Source of the DNA: a virus
Taxonomy: Duplodnaviria > Heunggongvirae > Uroviricota > Caudoviricetes
Strand: one strand, 5' to 3'
Virus record (IMG/VR): IMGVR_UViG_3300027312_000135
DNA: 12,244 nt
Within the stretch, counting starts at the first letter, position 1. Each line of letters begins with the position of its first letter. Positions 1,063-6,093 of the stretch are shown piece after piece. Under the pieces are notes generated by a model, which did no database searches, was not told the DNA's origin, and saw only the letters and a list, made by a program, of their open reading frames with translations. The position numbers and the translations under genes were made by a program.

Positions 1063-1755
1063 TTATCTCCCTTTCCTGACGAGAGCTTTCAGCCGGGCAA
1101 CGTTGTCCAGTGCCTTTTCGCTGGCTGTAGGCATGTAGAGCTTTTCCAGCTGCGCGCGCGGTGGGGGAATTTCTTCACCAGACTCGATGCGCGATGCCAT
1201 TTTGCGAAGCTCGGCGCGGCACTTTGCGCGCAGCTCAGGCTCAGAGAGGTTATTGGCGCGCATGGTGCTGTACAGTCCGGTGACCATCCAGTATGCGGCG
1301 TTGCTTTCCCACGGATACGCCTCGGGGCTGTCGATCAGACCGCGGCGGGCGGAGTACTTCATCACCATGTCATACAGACCGTCTTCGTCCGGCAGACCAG
1401 CGGAGCGGAGCTCGCCCTGCTTGCACCACTCGATAAATTGCCCAGGCGACGGCCAGAACGGCGAGGCACTGGCGCGGGCGTGCTTCATGCCGGCCGACAG
1501 CTGCTGCTTCGTGCTGATGTCGTTTTCAGCGAAGGCGGCGAGCCACTGACGCTTGGCTGAGGCTTCGTCGCGCGGATCCTTCAGCGCAGTGCTGACCGAT
1601 GCGGGAAAAACCTGCTTCAGGCTCATGAACAGCATGTCGACCAGACGCTCAACGGTTTCGTTAACGCCACGATCCACCGGCTGTGGGCCATCACCAGCCA
1701 TGCGGGCCAGCGCGCTGCTGTCGCGGTTGTTTATTGCGGCTACGAGATTTCTCAT
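1063..1755 (-). CDS. P: Lambda P-like replication protein (helicase loader)
   Basis: Translation (from M7 of the track ORF) shows blocks I recall from lambda P: SPGQFIEWC, YPWESNAAYWMVTGLYSTMRANNLSEPELR, RQWLAAFAENDIS. The ATG at 1755..1753 overlaps the O stop (ATGA). Confidence 0.85.
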   Translation of the reverse strand: MRNLVAAINNRDSSALARMAGDGPQPVDRGVNETVERLVDMLFMSLKQVFPASVSTALKDPRDEASAKRQWLAAFAENDISTKQQLSAGMKHARASASPFWPSPGQFIEWCKQGELRSAGLPDEDGLYDMVMKYSARRGLIDSPEAYPWESNAAYWMVTGLYSTMRANNLSEPELRAKCRAELRKMASRIESGEEIPPPRAQLEKLYMPTASEKALDNVARLKALVRKGR

Positions 1756-2675
1756 ATGAAATTTTCCTCCCACTCTCTGCGGTCGTTCCAGTGTGGAATC
1801 TGCTGCTGTGAACTGGATGGCGCGTTGCGGGCCGGCTGGCTCATCTGCGCTTTAAGGGTCGCCCACTGCTTTCGCAGCTTCGACGGGCTGAGGATGTTGG
1901 TCTGCCAGAACTGATTGCCGTTCGCCCAGGTGAAGACTTCGCAGATTTCCCGGTGGCTGACCTTCAGGGAATCGCGCATCAGGCGAATGTCGTTTGCCCA
2001 GGCTGGCCAGTTGGGTTGCTGTGCTGTCGGGGTGATCACCTGAACCTTGCTGAAAATCCACTGAGCAGCCAGAAGGTCTTCAGCGGTTCCCCACTTATCG
2101 CCCTTAGGTGAATGAACCGCTGCATCAGGCCGAACAACAGGAAGACTTTTCAGACGCTCGTCAGAGGATTCGCCAGAATTCTCGGACGTATGTTTAATGT
2201 CTTTTTTGTCTTTTGTAATAGTGTCTTTTGTGTGTCCCTGTTTTGGTGACATCCCTGTCACTGTTTTGGTGACACTTTTTGTCACTGTTTTGGTGACGGT
2301 GACACCATCTTGGTGACACTCTGGAATTTGCCACTCAGCGAGGTTCTTATTAGGCCCGATTAGCATGCCTTCCCGGACCAGAACACCCATCTGAATAAGC
2401 TCGTTTTTCGCCTTGTTCACCTTCTGCCTGGGCAGTCTGGTGAGCTGGCTTATCTGGCTGTCAGCAATGCGATCCATCTTTTTGTTGAAGCCGTATGTTT
2501 TCCGGCAAACAGCATGCGCAACCTTCGCCTGGTTCCTGGTCAGGTTGGCCCCTATCAGCTCTTCGTACAGCTCGTTTGCCAGACGCGTATATCCGTCGTC
2601 TGTGTCTGCCACACGTTGCTCCACGGCCCGGAGTTCGGGCCTGATTGGCGTTACATTTGCGAGAGCGAGGCTCAT
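1752..2675 (-). CDS. O: Lambda O-like replication initiator
   Basis: The N-terminal region (VADTDDGYTRLANELYEE...RKTYGFNKKMDRIADSQISQLTRLP...GPNKNLAEWQIPE) closely matches the lambda O N-terminal domain as I recall it. The central KTVTKTVTKSVTKTVT linker is encoded by the iteron repeats. Start overlaps the ParB-like stop. Confidence 0.9.
   Translation of the reverse strand: MSLALANVTPIRPELRAVEQRVADTDDGYTRLANELYEELIGANLTRNQAKVAHAVCRKTYGFNKKMDRIADSQISQLTRLPRQKVNKAKNELIQMGVLVREGMLIGPNKNLAEWQIPECHQDGVTVTKTVTKSVTKTVTGMSPKQGHTKDTITKDKKDIKHTSENSGESSDERLKSLPVVRPDAAVHSPKGDKWGTAEDLLAAQWIFSKVQVITPTAQQPNWPAWANDIRLMRDSLKVSHREICEVFTWANGNQFWQTNILSPSKLRKQWATLKAQMSQPARNAPSSSQQQIPHWNDRREWEENFI
2234..2317. repeat. 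Replication origin iterons inside the O gene, with adjacent AT-rich region (about 2195..2233)
   Basis: Three direct copies of the 17-mer GTCACTGTTTTGGTGAC (first copy GTCCC variant) at 2234..2250, 2257..2273 and 2281..2297, each with inverted-repeat arms, plus a degenerate fourth at about 2299..2317. A T-rich stretch (tgtcttttttgtcttttgtaatagtgtcttttgtg) lies downstream in the O reading direction, as in ori-lambda. Confidence 0.7.
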
Positions 2676-3475
2676 TTTGCCTCCTCCGGCTCTGTTGCAT
2701 CACCTAACACCCAACGGAGCGCTGCGGCGTAATCGCCGGTTGTCTCTGTCAGTGCCTGGGTAATTTCTTTGCGGGATCTCATGCGGGGTTTGCTTTCGCC
2801 CATCACGGCGCGCTGACGGCGGGCTCTTTCATGGCCCTTCGCTTCTGCACCGACTTGCGTTAGTTCTTTCACCTTGGCGCGCTGCTCTTCAGGCGGCATT
2901 GTTGACAGCTGGCGAGCATGCGTGACCGTCACCTGTCCGCCCTCTACTGCGTCCTGCACAGCCTGCGTGCAGTCCAGCAGTGCCAGGGTAGCTTTTACAG
3001 TCTGAAGGCTGCAGCCGAAAAGCAGCCCTAAATCCTGCTCATCGTGTCCGCGTTCAATCATCGCCGCCATTTTCTTTGCCCGCCCAAGGGGCGTATCGGC
3101 GCGCCGGATTTCGTTCGCGCTGACCATGTACTGGGACATGCGCACTGCCGATCCCCGCTTAGCGATTGCTGGCACGAGTACCGGTTCTTTACCTTCTGCC
3201 GCCAGGCGAATATTAGCCTCCAGGCTATGCCGGACCCGCTGACGACCGTCGACAACGCAGACCTTGCCGGATTCGGGATCTTTCCAGCACAGAACAGGCT
3301 CCAGAACGCCCTGATCCATGATGTTCAGCACCATCGCTTCGTCGATAGGCAGGTGAATGCGCTCGTCATAAAGCGGGTGTGATGGGTTGGTAACCAGGTA
3401 CAGGGCGCCCGGTTCGAAAAACAGCACGTTGCTTTTGCCGCTGGCGCCGTAAGCGTCGATTGAGTTCTTAGCCAT
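2672..3475 (-). CDS. ParB-like nuclease domain protein
   Basis: Track ORF with a GGAGG SD 5 nt before the ATG at 3475. Contains a VVDGRQRVRHSLEAN block resembling the ParB/Srx N-terminal arginine motif. Sits in the usual position between cII and O. Confidence 0.7.
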   Translation of the reverse strand: MAKNSIDAYGASGKSNVLFFEPGALYLVTNPSHPLYDERIHLPIDEAMVLNIMDQGVLEPVLCWKDPESGKVCVVDGRQRVRHSLEANIRLAAEGKEPVLVPAIAKRGSAVRMSQYMVSANEIRRADTPLGRAKKMAAMIERGHDEQDLGLLFGCSLQTVKATLALLDCTQAVQDAVEGGQVTVTHARQLSTMPPEEQRAKVKELTQVGAEAKGHERARRQRAVMGESKPRMRSRKEITQALTETTGDYAAALRWVLGDATEPEEAK

Positions 3476-3549
3476 TGGCGCCTCCGAGATTGAAAACTTC
3501 AGCTACTTGTTTCATAATTACTCCTGTGAATTGATCCAGTCTTTTCGCA

Positions 3550-3849
3550 TCAGGCCTCGAAGCTGTTCGCGCAGCTCGGGGCCTTTTCTTTGGTAAGAAG
3601 CTGCTCAATGCGAAGCAGTCTTTGCGCCACTTCAGATTCCGGCGACACAACATCGAGGTAAGCCATAGCGAGGCTCATCATCTGGAAGAAGCTGTGTTTC
3701 TGCATTCCCGATCTGCGCTTCATTCGGCTTATGGTCGCTTCATCCATATCAAGCACTTTCGCCAGAGTTCCTTGTCCGCGTTCAGCCAGCTTGTTCAGTA
3801 ACTGACTTTCGATTTCTCGCGCTTTTTTGCGATAACTTGCAATTTCCAT
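3550..3849 (-). CDS. cII: CII-like transcriptional activator
   Basis: Translation MEIASYRKKAREIESQLLNKLAERGQGTLAKVLDMDEATISRMKRR... parallels lambda CII (IESALLNKIA...VGVDKSQISRWKR) as recalled. Located downstream of cro and nutR. Confidence 0.8.
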   Translation of the reverse strand: MEIASYRKKAREIESQLLNKLAERGQGTLAKVLDMDEATISRMKRRSGMQKHSFFQMMSLAMAYLDVVSPESEVAQRLLRIEQLLTKEKAPSCANSFEA

Positions 3850-3912
3850 GACGTAATATCTCTTTCGTTGAATAAGTTGCGTGACATTGCGGTGAGCAAG
3901 TCACTTAAGGTT

Positions 3913-3954
3913 TCCCCACACGGGCGGGGACGGGTTTCAGAGTGTTAAAGAGCG
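3913..3954 (-). promoter_or_regulatory. nutR-like site: boxA plus boxB hairpin on the minus strand, just after cro
   Basis: Minus-strand sequence CGCTCTTTAACA (rc of 3943..3954) matches the boxA consensus, followed 12 nt later by the hairpin TCCCCGCCCGTGTGGGGA. Both elements are near-identical to the plus-strand site at 5286..5332. Confidence 0.6.
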
Positions 3955-3960
3955 GTGTTA

Positions 3961-4176
3961 CTAAGAGGCGGCTAACAGGTCTGCAAGATCAGGGCGAATC
4001 TCGAACGGTTTAACTCGACCCTGCGTGGCCTTGGATATTGCCAACACATATTTGGCATCTATGCCGCCTCCGTGTAGCCAACGCCAAACGGTCGGCTGTT
4101 TGACGCCGCAGAGATCAGCCAGCTTTTGCTGACTTCCTGCGATGTTCACAGCCCTTTGAATAGCTTTGTTAGTCAT
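3961..4176 (-). CDS. cro: Cro-like HTH repressor (YdaS/Cro family), 71 aa
   Basis: Start taken at the internal ATG 4176..4174 (MTNKAIQRAVNIAGSQQKLADLCGVKQPTVWRWL...), with an AAAGGA SD 6 nt upstream. The track's upstream extension would overlap PR and the operators. Diverges from cI. Confidence 0.75.
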   Translation of the reverse strand: MTNKAIQRAVNIAGSQQKLADLCGVKQPTVWRWLHGGGIDAKYVLAISKATQGRVKPFEIRPDLADLLAAS

Positions 4177-4207
4177 AGCAATTCCTTTACGTATTATCAC
4201 AGCAGGA

Positions 4208-4236
4208 ATAATAGCAATGAGTATTGGTAAAGGCAA
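4208..4236 (-). promoter_or_regulatory. PR-like promoter for cro (-35 TTGCCT, 17 bp spacer, -10 TATTAT on the minus strand), overlapped by ATAGCAAT operator motifs
   Basis: The rc of 4231..4236 is TTGCCT and the rc of 4208..4213 is TATTAT, with a 17 nt spacer. ATAGCAAT occurs at 4176..4183 and 4211..4218, and GCAATAGC at 4233..4240. Confidence 0.55.
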
Positions 4237-4248
4237 TAGCTTTCCACA

Positions 4249-4276
4249 TTTGACGGTTAATACGCCTAGCTATAAA
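4249..4276 (+). promoter_or_regulatory. PRM-like promoter for cI (-35 TTGACG, 16 bp spacer, -10 TATAAA), giving a leaderless or near-leaderless cI mRNA
   Basis: TTGACG at 4249..4254 and TATAAA at 4271..4276. The cI ATG at 4286 is about 10 nt past the -10, as for leaderless lambda cI from PRM. Confidence 0.5.
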
Positions 4277-4285
4277 TTGCGGGGT

Positions 4286-4909
4286 ATGAATAAAACTCTC
4301 GCAGAAAGATTGGCTAAGGCCATGCAAGAAAGGGATATGTCCCAGGGTGCTTTAGCTAAAGCATCGGGTGTAGCCCAACCAACTATCTGGCGCCTAGTCA
4401 AAGGTGAGGCCAAGGGTTCGACTCGTCTGGTTGATATTGCGCGCGCTCTGTCGGTGAGCGTTGAGTGGCTGGCTAACGGAACTGGGTCGATGGATGCTCA
4501 GGAAAAGATGACTTATCCTCAGCCACCAGCCAATGAGATGAAGCTCGGAGGGGTGTTTCCTGTTCCTGTCTTTGATCGCTCTAATGAACAAACACATGAC
4601 TATGTGTATGTCCCAAATTCAGTAGAGAGTGATAGCTGTAGAGCTTATATCTTAGAGCGAAATAGCGGGTGTTATGAAGCCCCTGCAGGAACTGTTGTCG
4701 TAGTAGACACAAAGGAAGAAGCTGGTAATGGTGATCTGGTTTACGCCAAAGTTAACGGGGCGTATTCCGTCTATAAATTTGTTGACGGCGGATCCACGGG
4801 TTATCTGTCAGTAGATGATGATCGCGTTCCTCTCGTACCTGCGACAACCGATTCATCCGTAATAGGCGTCGTCGTTTTCCTGCTGCGTGATCTGAAGCGC
4901 AAAAAGTAA
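4286..4909 (+). CDS. cI: CI-like repressor: N-terminal HTH (XRE type) plus C-terminal LexA/S24-like domain
   Basis: MNKTLAERLAKAMQERDMSQGALAKASGVAQPTIWRLVKGE is a typical HTH. The C-terminal ...ILERNSGCYEAPAGTVVVVD...VYKFVDGG parallels lambda CI VEGNSMTAP...LILVD...FKKL around the Ser/Lys region. An alternative start at 4217 is possible but would overlap both promoters. Confidence 0.85.
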   Translation: MNKTLAERLAKAMQERDMSQGALAKASGVAQPTIWRLVKGEAKGSTRLVDIARALSVSVEWLANGTGSMDAQEKMTYPQPPANEMKLGGVFPVPVFDRSNEQTHDYVYVPNSVESDSCRAYILERNSGCYEAPAGTVVVVDTKEEAGNGDLVYAKVNGAYSVYKFVDGGSTGYLSVDDDRVPLVPATTDSSVIGVVVFLLRDLKRKK

Positions 4910-4925
4910 TCCTCTTCATTTTTAG

Positions 4926-4962
4926 GGGGGGTGTATTCTGTATACCCTCCTTGCTTATTTCT
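4926..4962 (+). terminator. Candidate intrinsic terminator after cI
   Basis: Hairpin GGGGGGTGTA / loop TTCTG / TATACCCTCC (10 bp stem with 2 G.U pairs) followed by the T-rich TTGCTTATTTCT. Confidence 0.4.
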
Positions 4963-5182
4963 AAGCAAAGCCGTCGCCATAATCCCTCCCCCTTTTCAAT
5001 CAAATCAGCATTTTATATTTTGAGTCCACCCAAAACACTGTTGTTTTAAACAGTAGTTTTCATAGTGAAACACATCCTCTTATAAATCAAGCAGAGCGTG
5101 ACGCTTTTTTTCTACCCTTCTCAAATCAGTAGCTTGCCACCATAAAACACTAATTTTTTTCGATACGAAATCATTCACTTAT

Positions 5183-5242
5183 GCGTATTGCTATTGAAAT
5201 ATTACCAATACGTATTGCTATGAATAATACGCAATGCTATTG
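5183..5242. promoter_or_regulatory. OL-like operator cluster, three direct repeats (R)CG(Y)ATTGCTAT(T)G, probably overlapping PL
   Basis: GCGTATTGCTATTG at 5183..5196, ACGTATTGCTATG at 5210..5222 and ACGCAATGCTATTG at 5229..5242. The ATTGCTAT core is the reverse complement of the ATAGCAAT motifs in the cro/cI intergenic region. The PL hexamers could not be placed confidently. Confidence 0.45.
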
Positions 5243-5285
5243 TCTACCCCATCAGCAGGACGCAGTACCCAACAGGATGTTGGAT

Positions 5286-5332
5286 CGCTCTTTAACATTG
5301 ATGGGGTTTATTTCTCCCGCCCTTGTGGGAGA
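5286..5332 (+). promoter_or_regulatory. nutL-like site: boxA CGCTCTTTAACA plus boxB hairpin
   Basis: boxA at 5286..5297 is identical to the minus-strand copy at 3943..3954. The boxB hairpin TCTCCC-GCCCTTGT-GGGAGA at 5313..5332 shares the core CCCGCCC(T/G)TGTGGG with the nutR copy. Lies upstream of the N-like ORF. Confidence 0.6.
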
Positions 5333-5515
5333 CCAAAGAGCAGTTGGCTTTGGGATTGGATGAATGCGCAGGCATGGCTGGGATTAGCGAGTATTCCCGG
5401 CGTCGGCTGAAGCCGCTGGATAACAAACCCGCCTTGAGCGGTGGCAAAACCAGCGCGAGTGAACAGCGAGGAGCACCGGCCATCCAATCACCTAAGCCAA
5501 CTACCGGAGGTAAAT

Positions 5516-5785
5516 ATGTTTGCAGCTACCAACAGCGTCAGCCGTCGCTACCTCAAGCGTGGCGAACTGATCGCAAAACGCCGGGCAGAAGCGGCTGAAA
5601 GTAAAGCCCGCGTTGACGCCAGTGCTGAGCGCGTTTCGCGCGCTGTATCGGCGCCGAGCCTTCGTGAGAAACAAGACGTAGTAGCGCTACGCGTTAGTAC
5701 TAAATATCAGAAAATCAGCAACGAAGCTGGCCGTCAGATTCACGCTGTACAGAAGATCCGCGGAAAAAGCATTCCGCTTATCTAA
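5516..5785 (+). CDS. Putative N-like transcription antitermination protein (89 aa, basic, Arg-rich N-terminus)
   Basis: ATG at 5516 with a GGAGGT SD 5 nt upstream. N-terminus MFAATNSVSRRYLKRGELIAKRRAEAAESKAR is arginine-rich like an N-type ARM. First gene after nutL, with nut sites on both divergent transcripts. No sequence similarity to lambda N is claimed. Confidence 0.5.
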   Translation: MFAATNSVSRRYLKRGELIAKRRAEAAESKARVDASAERVSRAVSAPSLREKQDVVALRVSTKYQKISNEAGRQIHAVQKIRGKSIPLI

Positions 5786-6093
5786 TGGCTTTCGATCCAG
5801 TCAGTACGCTGATGAACGAGATGAAGCTGATAGAGGTTATTAGCTTCTGCTCGCCTTCCACAGTTACAGCAGATAGCGCCATGAGGGGTATTTTTTTCTG
5901 CGTCTTTGAAGGTGAACTGAAATCAGCGTGCTCCACATTCAGGGCACCGAAACTTAACACGGCCCATGAGGAGACTCCGTTTTGGTTTTGCTTAGTGATA
6001 GGTAACCCTAACATTCCTTCCAGCTTTAGCCAGCAAAAAATGAACTTACTGCCGCATAAGCGGCTTTTTTTACGCCCAAATTCAGGAGAGTAA
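5785..6093 (+). CDS. Hypothetical Cys/Phe-rich ORF (102 aa), uncertain
   Basis: ATG overlaps the N-like stop (TAATG), but the composition is odd, no SD is evident, and its 3' end contains an intrinsic terminator. Confidence 0.3.
   Translation: MAFDPVSTLMNEMKLIEVISFCSPSTVTADSAMRGIFFCVFEGELKSACSTFRAPKLNTAHEETPFWFCLVIGNPNIPSSFSQQKMNLLPHKRLFLRPNSGE
6051..6071 (+). terminator. Intrinsic terminator (GCCGC-ATAA-GCGGC followed by T7)
   Basis: Perfect 5 bp GC stem, 4 nt loop, then TTTTTTT at 6065..6071. The downstream linker ACGCCCAAATT is repeated at 10943..10953. Confidence 0.5.

Follow-up and report, generated by a model that had tools for sequence, protein, structure and literature searches.

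The closest described systems are the N/nut antitermination systems of phages lambda, P22, and 21. In lambda, boxA, spacer, and boxB stand on both early transcripts, and N, a protein with an N-terminal arginine-rich motif (ARM), is encoded by the first gene of the PL operon. The boxB hairpins of lambda and P22 adopt a GNRA-like pentaloop fold, and that of phage 21 forms a U-turn-like CUAACC hexaloop. The lambda terminator tR1 is Rho-dependent. Phage HK022, which encodes Nun and not N, carries put sites, two-stem RNAs of ∼70 nt that contain no boxA and act without a phage protein. Antitermination by lambda N depends on NusA, NusB, NusE, and NusG (PMC2724277). The boxA of the rrn operons reads UGCUCUUUA(acaa) and that of lambda CGCUCUUA (PMC2724277), and the loop of the phage 21 boxB has been described as CUAACC (PMC12550061). 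The phage 21 record OL657228 carries annotations for boxA-L, boxA-R, nutL, nutR, and tR1.

The DNA analyzed here, in the following called the window, is a viral stretch of 12,244 nt. It is a lambdoid immunity and early region, reversed relative to the conventional lambda map. The genes P, O, ParB-like, cII, and cro are read from PR on the minus strand, PRM and cI follow on the plus strand, and N, exo, and recT lie beyond OL/PL. The following features make up the region around the two sites.

1063-1773, minus strand: P (PF06992).
1752-2675, minus strand: O (PF04492), with four 19-nt iterons at 2233-2318.
2672-3475, minus strand: ParB-like gene.
3550-3849, minus strand: cII (PF05269 Phage_CII, E = 8.5e-16), the first gene past the putative nutR.
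3961-4176, minus strand: cro-like repressor of 71 aa (PF15943/HTH, phrog_35), the first gene of the PR operon and directly 5′ of the putative nutR; its stop codon is 3963-3961.
4208-4236, minus strand: PR-like promoter (TTGCCT, 17 nt, TG-TATTAT), overlapping the operator repeats; a consensus match only.
4286-4909, plus strand: cI-type repressor (HTH and S24 peptidase), between the two putative nut sites.
5181-5243, plus strand: OL operators, three copies of AT(A/G)CG(T/C)A(T/A)TGCTAT at 5181, 5208, and 5227.
5215-5243, plus strand: PL-like promoter (−35 TTGCTA at 5215-5220, 17-nt spacer, −10 TATTGT at 5238-5243), assigned by eye and overlapping OL.
5516-5785, plus strand: gene for an N-like antiterminator of 89 aa; a GGAGG lies 7 nt 5′ of the ATG.
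5531-5593, plus strand: ARM NSVSRRYLKRGELIAKRRAEA, residues 6-26 of the N-like protein.
6051-6071, plus strand: intrinsic-terminator-like hairpin, GCCGCATAAGCGGC with a T7 tail, 3′ of N in the PL operon, a candidate tL target.
6459-6491, plus strand: second intrinsic-terminator-like hairpin (11 pairs and T7) between N and exo/recT, a candidate target of N.
Between the N-like ORF and the exonuclease, plus strand: two small ORFs.
7078-7899, plus strand: PDDEXK exonuclease (exo).
7896-8798, plus strand: RecT.

Three operator-like repeats of the form AT(A/G)CGTATTGCTAT lie at 5181-5240, and inverted copies are found between cro and cI; the best OL/OR pair shows 90% complementarity over 20 nt. Both promoters are predictions in a window where promoter consensus matches occur at background frequency. 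To place the PL start, we relied on homology with phage 21. The leader ATCAGCAGGACGC at 5251 has its homologue in the start annotated for pL in that phage, and CATCAGCAGGACGC, located 3′ of the PL-like promoter, is annotated there as the transcription start. No intrinsic terminator was detected in the PR operon from nutR to cII/O, a Rho-dependent tR1 being beyond the reach of the tools; by analogy with lambda, a Rho-dependent tR1 equivalent would be expected near cII. A cII-type site, TTGCN6TTGC, is found at 3877-3890, on the strand opposite to the nutR hairpin and ∼23 nt from it. Transcripts probably cross this hairpin in both directions. An Rfam E-value scan of the whole window returned no nut or put family and one spurious match to snoU83 (E = 0.72). 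Megablast of positions 3500-5900 found short patches only, in Erwinia phages, Klebsiella phages, and E. coli. The host of the lambdoid prophage is probably Pantoea. The predicted early transcription map is set by PR, nutR, PL, nutL, N, and the candidate tL terminators.

Two repeated elements lie on this map, both in the sense orientation on the predicted transcripts, one on the PR transcript past cro and the other in the leader of the first PL gene, where 183 nt separate its end from the N start codon. In lambda, nutR and nutL are placed in the same way. The parts of the two elements are as follows.

3943-3954, minus strand: boxA of nutR, CGCUCUUUAACA, an exact copy of the repeated 12-mer, starting 7 nt 3′ of the cro stop codon.
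3931-3942, minus strand: nutR spacer of 12 nt, CUCUGAAACCCG, predicted to be single stranded.
3913-3930, minus strand: boxB of nutR, UCCCCGC[CCGU]GUGGGGA, with the stem at 3930-3924/3919-3913 and the loop at 3923-3920.
5286-5297, plus strand: boxA of nutL, CGCUCUUUAACA, ∼36 nt 3′ of the inferred PL transcription start.
5298-5312, plus strand: nutL spacer of 15 nt, UUGAUGGGGUUUAUU.
5313-5332, plus strand: boxB of nutL, UCUCCCGC[CCUU]GUGGGAGA, with the stem at 5313-5320/5325-5332 and the loop at 5321-5324.

We read positions 3913-3954 (minus strand) as nutR and 5286-5332 (plus strand) as nutL, the functional N loading sites of a lambdoid prophage, with a probability of roughly 0.88. A preliminary description of this DNA, made from the letters alone, had pointed to a boxA match on the minus strand with a GC hairpin 12 nt further on, in the position of lambda nutR, and to the same 12-mer and a near-identical hairpin core on the plus strand upstream of an N-like gene. 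These observations hold to the nucleotide. The boxA match is exact at 3954-3943, begins 7 nt past the cro stop codon, and is sense on the PR transcript, with the hairpin at 3930-3913; the plus-strand 12-mer lies at 5286-5297, and the cores agree in 13 of 14 positions. The intervals 3913-3954 and 5286-5332 span the two elements exactly, and 5516-5785 is the N-like ORF.

The preliminary description had also held that such a duplication is hard to explain by chance, and the counts bear this out. The 12-mer CGCTCTTTAACA has two exact copies in the 12,244-nt window, at 3954-3943 (minus strand) and 5286-5297 (plus strand), and no third, while none of 200 dinucleotide-preserving shuffles contains even one, the chance expectation being no copy. 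A search permitting two mismatches is uninformative, with 1.17 matches expected by chance. The pairwise alignment proposed as a check shows that the sites share the 12-mer and the hairpin core CCCGCCC(G/T)TGTGGG only, with unrelated flanks; the two outer stem pairs are exchanged in a compensatory manner between nutR and nutL (C-G/U-A versus U-A/C-G). The RNA folding proposed alongside it gave a nutR boxB of 7 pairs and −11.7 kcal/mol, with equally stable folds in 2 of 200 shuffles, and a nutL boxB of 8 pairs and −12.8 kcal/mol, a stability reached in 0 of 200. Folds of 61 nt at both sites show no significant extra stability over shuffles (z of −1.2 to −1.4).

The N-like reading of the 5516-5785 product, likewise proposed beforehand, is borne out by a match to phrog_271, "anti-termination protein N-like" (E = 3.8e-6), and by a colinear alignment with phage 21 N at 35% identity (E = 4e-5). 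This alignment covers the ARM, SRRYLKRGELIAKRR in the window and SRYKARRAELIAERR in phage 21, and within it BLASTP pairs SRRYLKRGELIAKRRAEAAE with SRYKARRAELIAERRSNEAL, which indicates homology of the ARMs. The window thus has, as the lambdoid N/nut systems do, a small basic N with an N-terminal ARM as the first PL gene. A longer ORF from a GTG at 5441 was considered and rejected, as homologues begin with MFAATNS and the GGAGG precedes the ATG at 5516. No model of Pfam (E ≤ 10), N36 included, or of NCBIfam (E ≤ 1) matches the window N. The homologue P0012, 83% identical across the N-terminal 65% of the window N, matches Pfam N_peptide (1.3e-11). Searches of PDB sequences with the full N and with its first 34 residues returned nothing relevant and did not retrieve the phage 21 peptide of entry 1NYB, the NMR structure of the phage 21 N peptide-boxB complex. 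In a phage collection of 50,697 records, tblastn of the window N and of the ARM alone gave no real matches; among the queries, the Salmonella homologue P0047 alone reaches phage 21, DE3, and Stx phages, by way of its C-terminal part.

An alignment of 71 homologues, mainly from Pantoea, shows N to be a modular protein. In other prophages, at least five N-terminal ARMs besides that of the window are combined with the window-type C-terminal half, namely, the lambda-like MNAQERRRAARAEKQAEWK as well as DNARNRRRAKRA, MNNKQRKKLQRAVEHRA, DNAKSRRNARRAEEAIKARE, and MTRRTQF...GRRRERRAHLQ. The window ARM in turn is fused to phage 21-type and P22-type C termini in Klebsiella, Salmonella, and Citrobacter; P0012 and P0066 join the window ARM type to a P22-type C terminus.

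Phage 21 resembles the window in the placement of boxA-R a few nucleotides past cro and of boxA-L ∼40 nt past the pL start, within a homologous leader. Its boxA-R and boxA-L are annotated as GCTCTTTA, boxA GCUCUUUAACA is common to phage 21 and the window, and the phage 21 sequence GCTCTTTAACA is the same as the window boxA. The latter, CGCUCUUUAACA, combines the rrn-type consensus GCUCUUUAACA and a 5′ C like that of lambda; it agrees with the rrn-type consensus UGCUCUUUAacaa save for the first base, which is the C of lambda (PMC2724277). The boxA of lambda, CGCUCUUA, is one U shorter. On the transcript, both window sites show the CGCUCUU(U)A consensus of lambdoid N/nut systems. The hairpins differ. 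Phage 21 has the hexaloop CUAACC in both boxB elements, UCUCAAC[CUAACC]GUUGAGA and UCACCU[CUAACC]GGGUGA (OL657228), whereas the window hairpins lack it and carry a 4-nt C-N-N-U loop, [CCGU] and [CCUU], on a G·U-containing stem. The register of the tyrosine relative to ELIA also differs between the two N proteins. Judged from these sequences, cross-recognition between the window and phage 21 pairs is unlikely.

Lambda has the same arrangement of boxA, spacer, and boxB on both early transcripts, with N and its N-terminal ARM first in the PL operon, but its boxB has a 5-bp stem and the GNRA-like pentaloop GAAAA in place of the C-N-N-U loop. More generally, the window boxB lacks the purine-rich pentaloop of the lambda/P22 type (5-bp stem, U-A closed, with GAAAA, GAAGA, or GACAA). 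The P22-type boxB GCGCUGACAAAGCGC with the ARM GNAKTRRHERRRKLAIERD, found in P22, Stx phages such as SH2026Stx1, and HK620-like phages, differs from the window pair as well. True lambda-type and P22-type boxB elements do occur among the related prophages (L014, L015, and L027). Two of these prophages, L014 and L015 from Pantoea, combine GCCCUGAAAAAGGGC and a true lambda-type ARM with a window-type N C-terminal domain. The flanks of the window nutL and the leader downstream of it are 75 to 79% identical to HK620, HK140, mEpX2, and IME10, which carry the annotation "putative Nut boxA site." The put sites of HK022 are, like the predicted window sites, cis-acting RNAs just past PL and PR that make the polymerase terminator resistant. 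A put reading was rejected, as a boxA and an N homologue are present in the window and each site has one short hairpin only. A reading of the boxB hairpin as a terminator was also rejected, the hairpin having no U-tract.

The preliminary description had set co-conservation of the two sites in related prophages beforehand as the test that could refute the nut reading, and both sites are kept in 12 other loci with an intact N of this type. A search seeded with the ARM, restricted to one ARM class and one genome per species, yielded nine loci. All eight of them with an intact N contain exactly two copies of the motif C[CT]GCC..TGT[GA]G, one on the N strand 5′ of N and the other on the opposite strand past cro; in the ninth, L010, N is truncated and nut sites are absent. 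The same two-site pattern is found in the window and in three contigs fetched through the Klebsiella and Salmonella homologues, and throughout these loci the boxB motif follows a boxA. Both sites are co-conserved in all 12 other intact-N loci of this ARM type, which come from Pantoea, Citrobacter, Leclercia, Pseudescherichia, Superficieibacter, Klebsiella, and Salmonella, many of them close kin and not independent, so that the counts overstate the number of evolutionary events. Outside the nut positions the motif is absent from 221,608 nt on both strands, and none of 14 loci with other ARM types contains it.

A second search, seeded with the exact 20-mer of the nutL hairpin, found 53 viral contigs in IMG/VR, where the invariance of nutL is given by construction and only nutR and the ARM are informative. 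A window-type ARM lies downstream in 53 of 53, and a matching nutR is present in 35 of them; in six contigs that extend for more than 2.5 kb upstream, no nutR was detected inside the limits of the search. Among the relatives, boxA is the invariant CGCTCTTTAACA in almost all nutR sites, and the nutL boxA is degenerate in some (TGCTTATTTAACA) beside an intact boxB. The spacers vary in sequence at a length of 10 to 15 nt, with UUGAUGGGGU kept in the nutL of relatives even where the boxB class is different. The segment from nutL to the ARM is absent from 5,426 complete E. coli genomes, in which only the leader 3′ of boxB was matched.

The hairpins of these relatives show covariation. Among 13 distinct hairpins, 91% of cells are paired, compared to 36 to 75% in slid registers, and double compensatory changes occur in 4 of the 7 to 8 boxB pairs. 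Compensatory cells number 18, compared to 6.6 ± 2.4 in shuffles, and none of 500 shuffles reaches 18, the cells being drawn from related sequences. RNAalifold on the full boxA-to-boxB sequences returns the same 7-bp helix and leaves boxA unpaired. The top of the stem (C-G, G·U, C-G) and positions 1 (C) and 4 (U) of the loop are invariant in all 13 hairpins, while loop positions 2 and 3 are free, giving C-N-N-U; the loops seen are CCGU, CCUU, CCAU, CUUU, CAUU, CAAU, and CGGU. The complementary strand would have an A·C mismatch in place of the invariant G·U, so that selection acts on the sense RNA. As expected of a boxB, a stem-loop with structural support follows each boxA after a short spacer.

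The first alternative to be weighed is antitermination by boxA only, in the style of the rrn operons, with the hairpin as a passive element of structure or RNA stability and the 89-aa protein doing something else. The window boxA is the full rrn-type consensus GCUCUUUAACA and not the weaker lambda form, as this explanation would have it, and rrn antitermination requires neither N nor boxB (PMC2724277). Against it stands the behavior of the hairpin, whose type changes together with the ARM of the neighboring N, against a constant boxA and constant flanks. Loci that share the window N's C-terminal domain, or its leader, and have another ARM show a different boxB in both nut positions, as follows.

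Lambda-like ARM: boxB GCGCUGAAAAAGCGC and GCCCUGAAAAAGGGC (L014, L015).
DNARNRRRA(K/R)R ARM: boxB CCCGC[CGAAAU]GCGGG and CUCCCAC[CGAAAU]GUCGGAG (L001, L002, L018, L019).
MN(N/S)KQR... ARM: GAGACUGAUUCGGUCUC-type stems (L012, L024).
DNAKSRRNARR ARM: boxB GGUGC[CGAGAAC]GCACC (L016).
MTRRTQF... ARM: boxB GGCUGAAAAGCC (L023).
P22-like ARM: boxB GCGCUGACAAAGCGC (L027).

The core that goes with DNARNRRRAKR is CCGC[CGAAAU]GCGG, and MNNKQRKK is paired with CUGAUUCGG stems. Between the window and L018 and L019, boxB alone is exchanged, with an almost identical nutL spacer (UUGAUGGGGUUUGU) and downstream leader. The boxB type matches the ARM type, by association, at both sites in all 13 intact-N loci of the window ARM type, the window included. 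The immunity genes separate the two boxB sites of a locus, which are over 1.3 kb from each other. A peptide motif and two hairpins that switch together across the immunity genes are what a cognate N-boxB interaction predicts and what a passive hairpin cannot explain. The invariant top three pairs and loop positions 1 and 4 above a covarying lower stem are typical of a protein-recognized hairpin, and the degenerate nutL boxA (TGCTTATTTAACA) next to an intact boxB in some relatives also speaks against boxA as the sole functional element. Antitermination by boxA only is therefore improbable.

Still less probable is that the 5516-5785 product is a Nun-like exclusion factor, arresting transcription at its own or a competitor's boxB-type hairpins. 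In HK022, Nun is encoded in the place of N, carries an N-like ARM, and binds to boxB (PMC5386594), and mEp235 is annotated with both Nun and N under a single tblastn match. The window N, however, is colinear with phage 21 N to the C terminus, where the tails QKIRGKSIPLI (window) and QKIKLGSKPLI (phage 21) align. Its cognate hairpins lie on the phage's own two early transcripts, where a terminating factor would be self-destructive, and the terminator-like sites ahead of the recombination genes call for an antiterminator.

A similarly slight probability attaches to the proposal that the hairpin on the nutR side is mainly part of tR1/rut, an RNase III site, or an antisense pRE element, with its PL duplicate due to shared leader ancestry. 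The cII-type site at 3877-3890, so near on the opposite strand, would fit an antisense role, but the flanks of nutL and nutR are unrelated and boxA and boxB alone are shared. The hairpin has no U-tract, and an antisense RNA would turn the G·U that all 13 distinct hairpins keep into an A·C mismatch. The probability that two unrelated GC-rich hairpins resemble each other by chance beside a common 12-mer is negligible: the 12-mer is no rarer than expected once two mismatches are allowed, and the 61-nt folds are unremarkable against shuffles, but the exact duplication stands against an expectation of zero, and both positions are conserved, with covariation, in 12 other intact-N loci of this type and 53 viral contigs.

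For the nut reading, position, strand, the N homologue, co-conservation, covariation, and the hairpin switching linked to the ARM agree, and the computational tests of these points were all positive, which supports the nut assignment at the level of sequence. Binding by N and the Nus factors, with read-through of terminators, would follow by analogy with the biology of lambda, P22, and phage 21. Upon derepression, PR would transcribe cro and PL the N leader. As the single-stranded boxA CGCUCUUUAACA emerges in the RNA, NusB-NusE (S10) would bind to it, and the N-terminal arginine-rich helix NSVSRRYLKRGELIAKRR of N would bind boxB, with its 7- to 8-bp stem, the C-G/G·U/C-G top, and the C-N-N-U loop. 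The rest of N, together with NusA and NusG, may then hold the RNA loop on the elongation complex. On the PR side, the modified polymerase would pass a tR1-type terminator ahead of cII-O-P, and on the PL side, it would pass the two strong intrinsic-terminator-like sites at ∼6051 and ∼6459 ahead of exo/recT.

The N/nut system described here is of the ordinary textbook type, in a new prophage lineage, and its value for annotation is a routine but correct call for a Pantoea-type lambdoid prophage. The fresh point is that a phage 21-related ARM goes together with a boxB that has neither a GNRA-like pentaloop nor a CUAACC hexaloop, unlike the three classes studied structurally. This ARM/boxB pair is well supported and apparently uncharacterized, and it is spread widely among prophages of Pantoea, Klebsiella, Salmonella, Citrobacter, and Leclercia. 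No description of this type was found in the searchable literature, which leaves out most subscription journals, so that a prior description is possible. We suggest tentatively, at somewhat less than even odds, that the ARM NSV(S/T)RRYLKRGEL(I/M)AKRR and the boxB (Y)CYCC(C)GC[CNNU]GUGG(G)RG(R) together make up a fourth N-peptide/RNA recognition pair that is orthogonal, stems from the phage 21 lineage, and would read the invariant G·U and the loop C and U and leave the middle two bases free.

If this pair binds specifically and without cross-reaction with those of lambda, P22, and phage 21, the N-boxB toolbox would gain an orthogonal peptide-RNA tether, and if the proposed mode of recognition is true, the pair would offer a new small model of how an arginine-rich helix recognizes a G·U-containing hairpin. 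For the prophage family, one N C-terminal domain with at least six ARMs, each with its own boxB, amounts to a natural experiment and gives a clear natural example of modular ARM/boxB exchange.

The region around cro and cI contains two candidate control elements for repressor synthesis:

3877-3890, plus strand: TTGC-N6-TTGC repeat TTGCGTGACATTGC, a match to the lambda cII-binding repeat
4250-4288, plus strand: PRM-like promoter with a TTGACG / 17 nt / TAAATT arrangement

The repeat is located between the cII start codon and boxB-R, pointing to cI, and is likely the activator site of pRE. If so, the pRE transcript would cross nutR and cro in antisense. Erwinia phage vB_EhrS_49 contains the same TTGC-N6-TTGC repeat. 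In phage 21, the counterpart of this site is annotated within cII. The end of the PRM-like promoter lies 7 nt upstream of the cI ATG (4286), so the repressor mRNA may be leaderless, as it is in lambda.

The replication genes show two further features:

2233-2318: four 19-nt direct repeats TGTCACTGTTTTGGTGACA within the O gene
2672-3475, minus strand: ParB-like helix-turn-helix (HTH) gene inserted between cII and O

The repeats, which were flagged as "terminator-like" by a terminator scan, are almost certainly ori iterons bound by O. The insertion of the ParB-like gene differs from the arrangement in lambda and is shared with the Pantoea loci L018, L019, and L024.

Beyond recT, positions 9000-10900 have a GC content of 36-39%, compared to 50-60% in the rest of the window. 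The following genes lie in or near this block:

8864-9335, minus strand: three paralogous small open reading frames (ORFs) in tandem (52, 47, and 47 amino acids)
9356-9943, minus strand: DUF6338 gene, within the block
10243-10905: unannotated ORF of 220 amino acids, within the block
11387-11959: Dam methylase gene

The block looks like an acquired moron between the Dam methylase gene and recT. The three small ORFs border it and share the C-terminal end ...KQVT(Q)P(A/V)PPPKKP; a Pfam search with one of the three gave no match.

In related prophages, the two nut sites vary in different ways. The boxA of nutL is frequently degenerate (TGCTTTTTAACA, TGCTTATTTAACA), as in loci L007, L008, and L020 and several of the viral contigs carrying the nutL hairpin, compared to a nearly always perfect CGCTCTTTAACA in nutR. 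The boxB-R hairpin is far more variable than the boxB-L 20-mer. Locus L010 (Pseudocitrobacter) contains a truncated N ORF without nut sites and is presumably a decaying prophage. Although locus L011 is labeled as the alphaproteobacterium Martelella alba, its lambdoid N/nut region is typical of enterobacteria and its boxB variants are compensatory; the label may reflect contamination or mis-binning.

Alignment of the N homologues P0012, P0020, P0021, P0046, P0048, P0049, and P0066 shows a mosaic of two modules. A single C-terminal domain (…STKYQKVSNEAGRQIHAVQK.RGKSIPLI) is joined to at least six distinct arginine-rich N termini, and the arginine-rich motif of the window's N is also found on C termini of the P22 type and the phage 21 type. 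A conserved leader accompanies the nutL site:

5334-5373, plus strand: leader CCAAAGAGCAGTTGGCTTTGGGATTGGATGAATGCGCAGGC with a CCAAAG/CTTTGG hairpin, directly 3' of boxB-L

In E. coli, Erwinia, Yersinia, and Hafnia, this leader is 75-95% conserved in phages and prophages of the lambdoid type, independently of the boxB class, the hairpin type paired with a given arginine-rich motif. The matching element of CUS-3 is annotated as a "boundary sequence." The leader may be a recombination boundary, or it may act in the processing of the N leader or in translation control.
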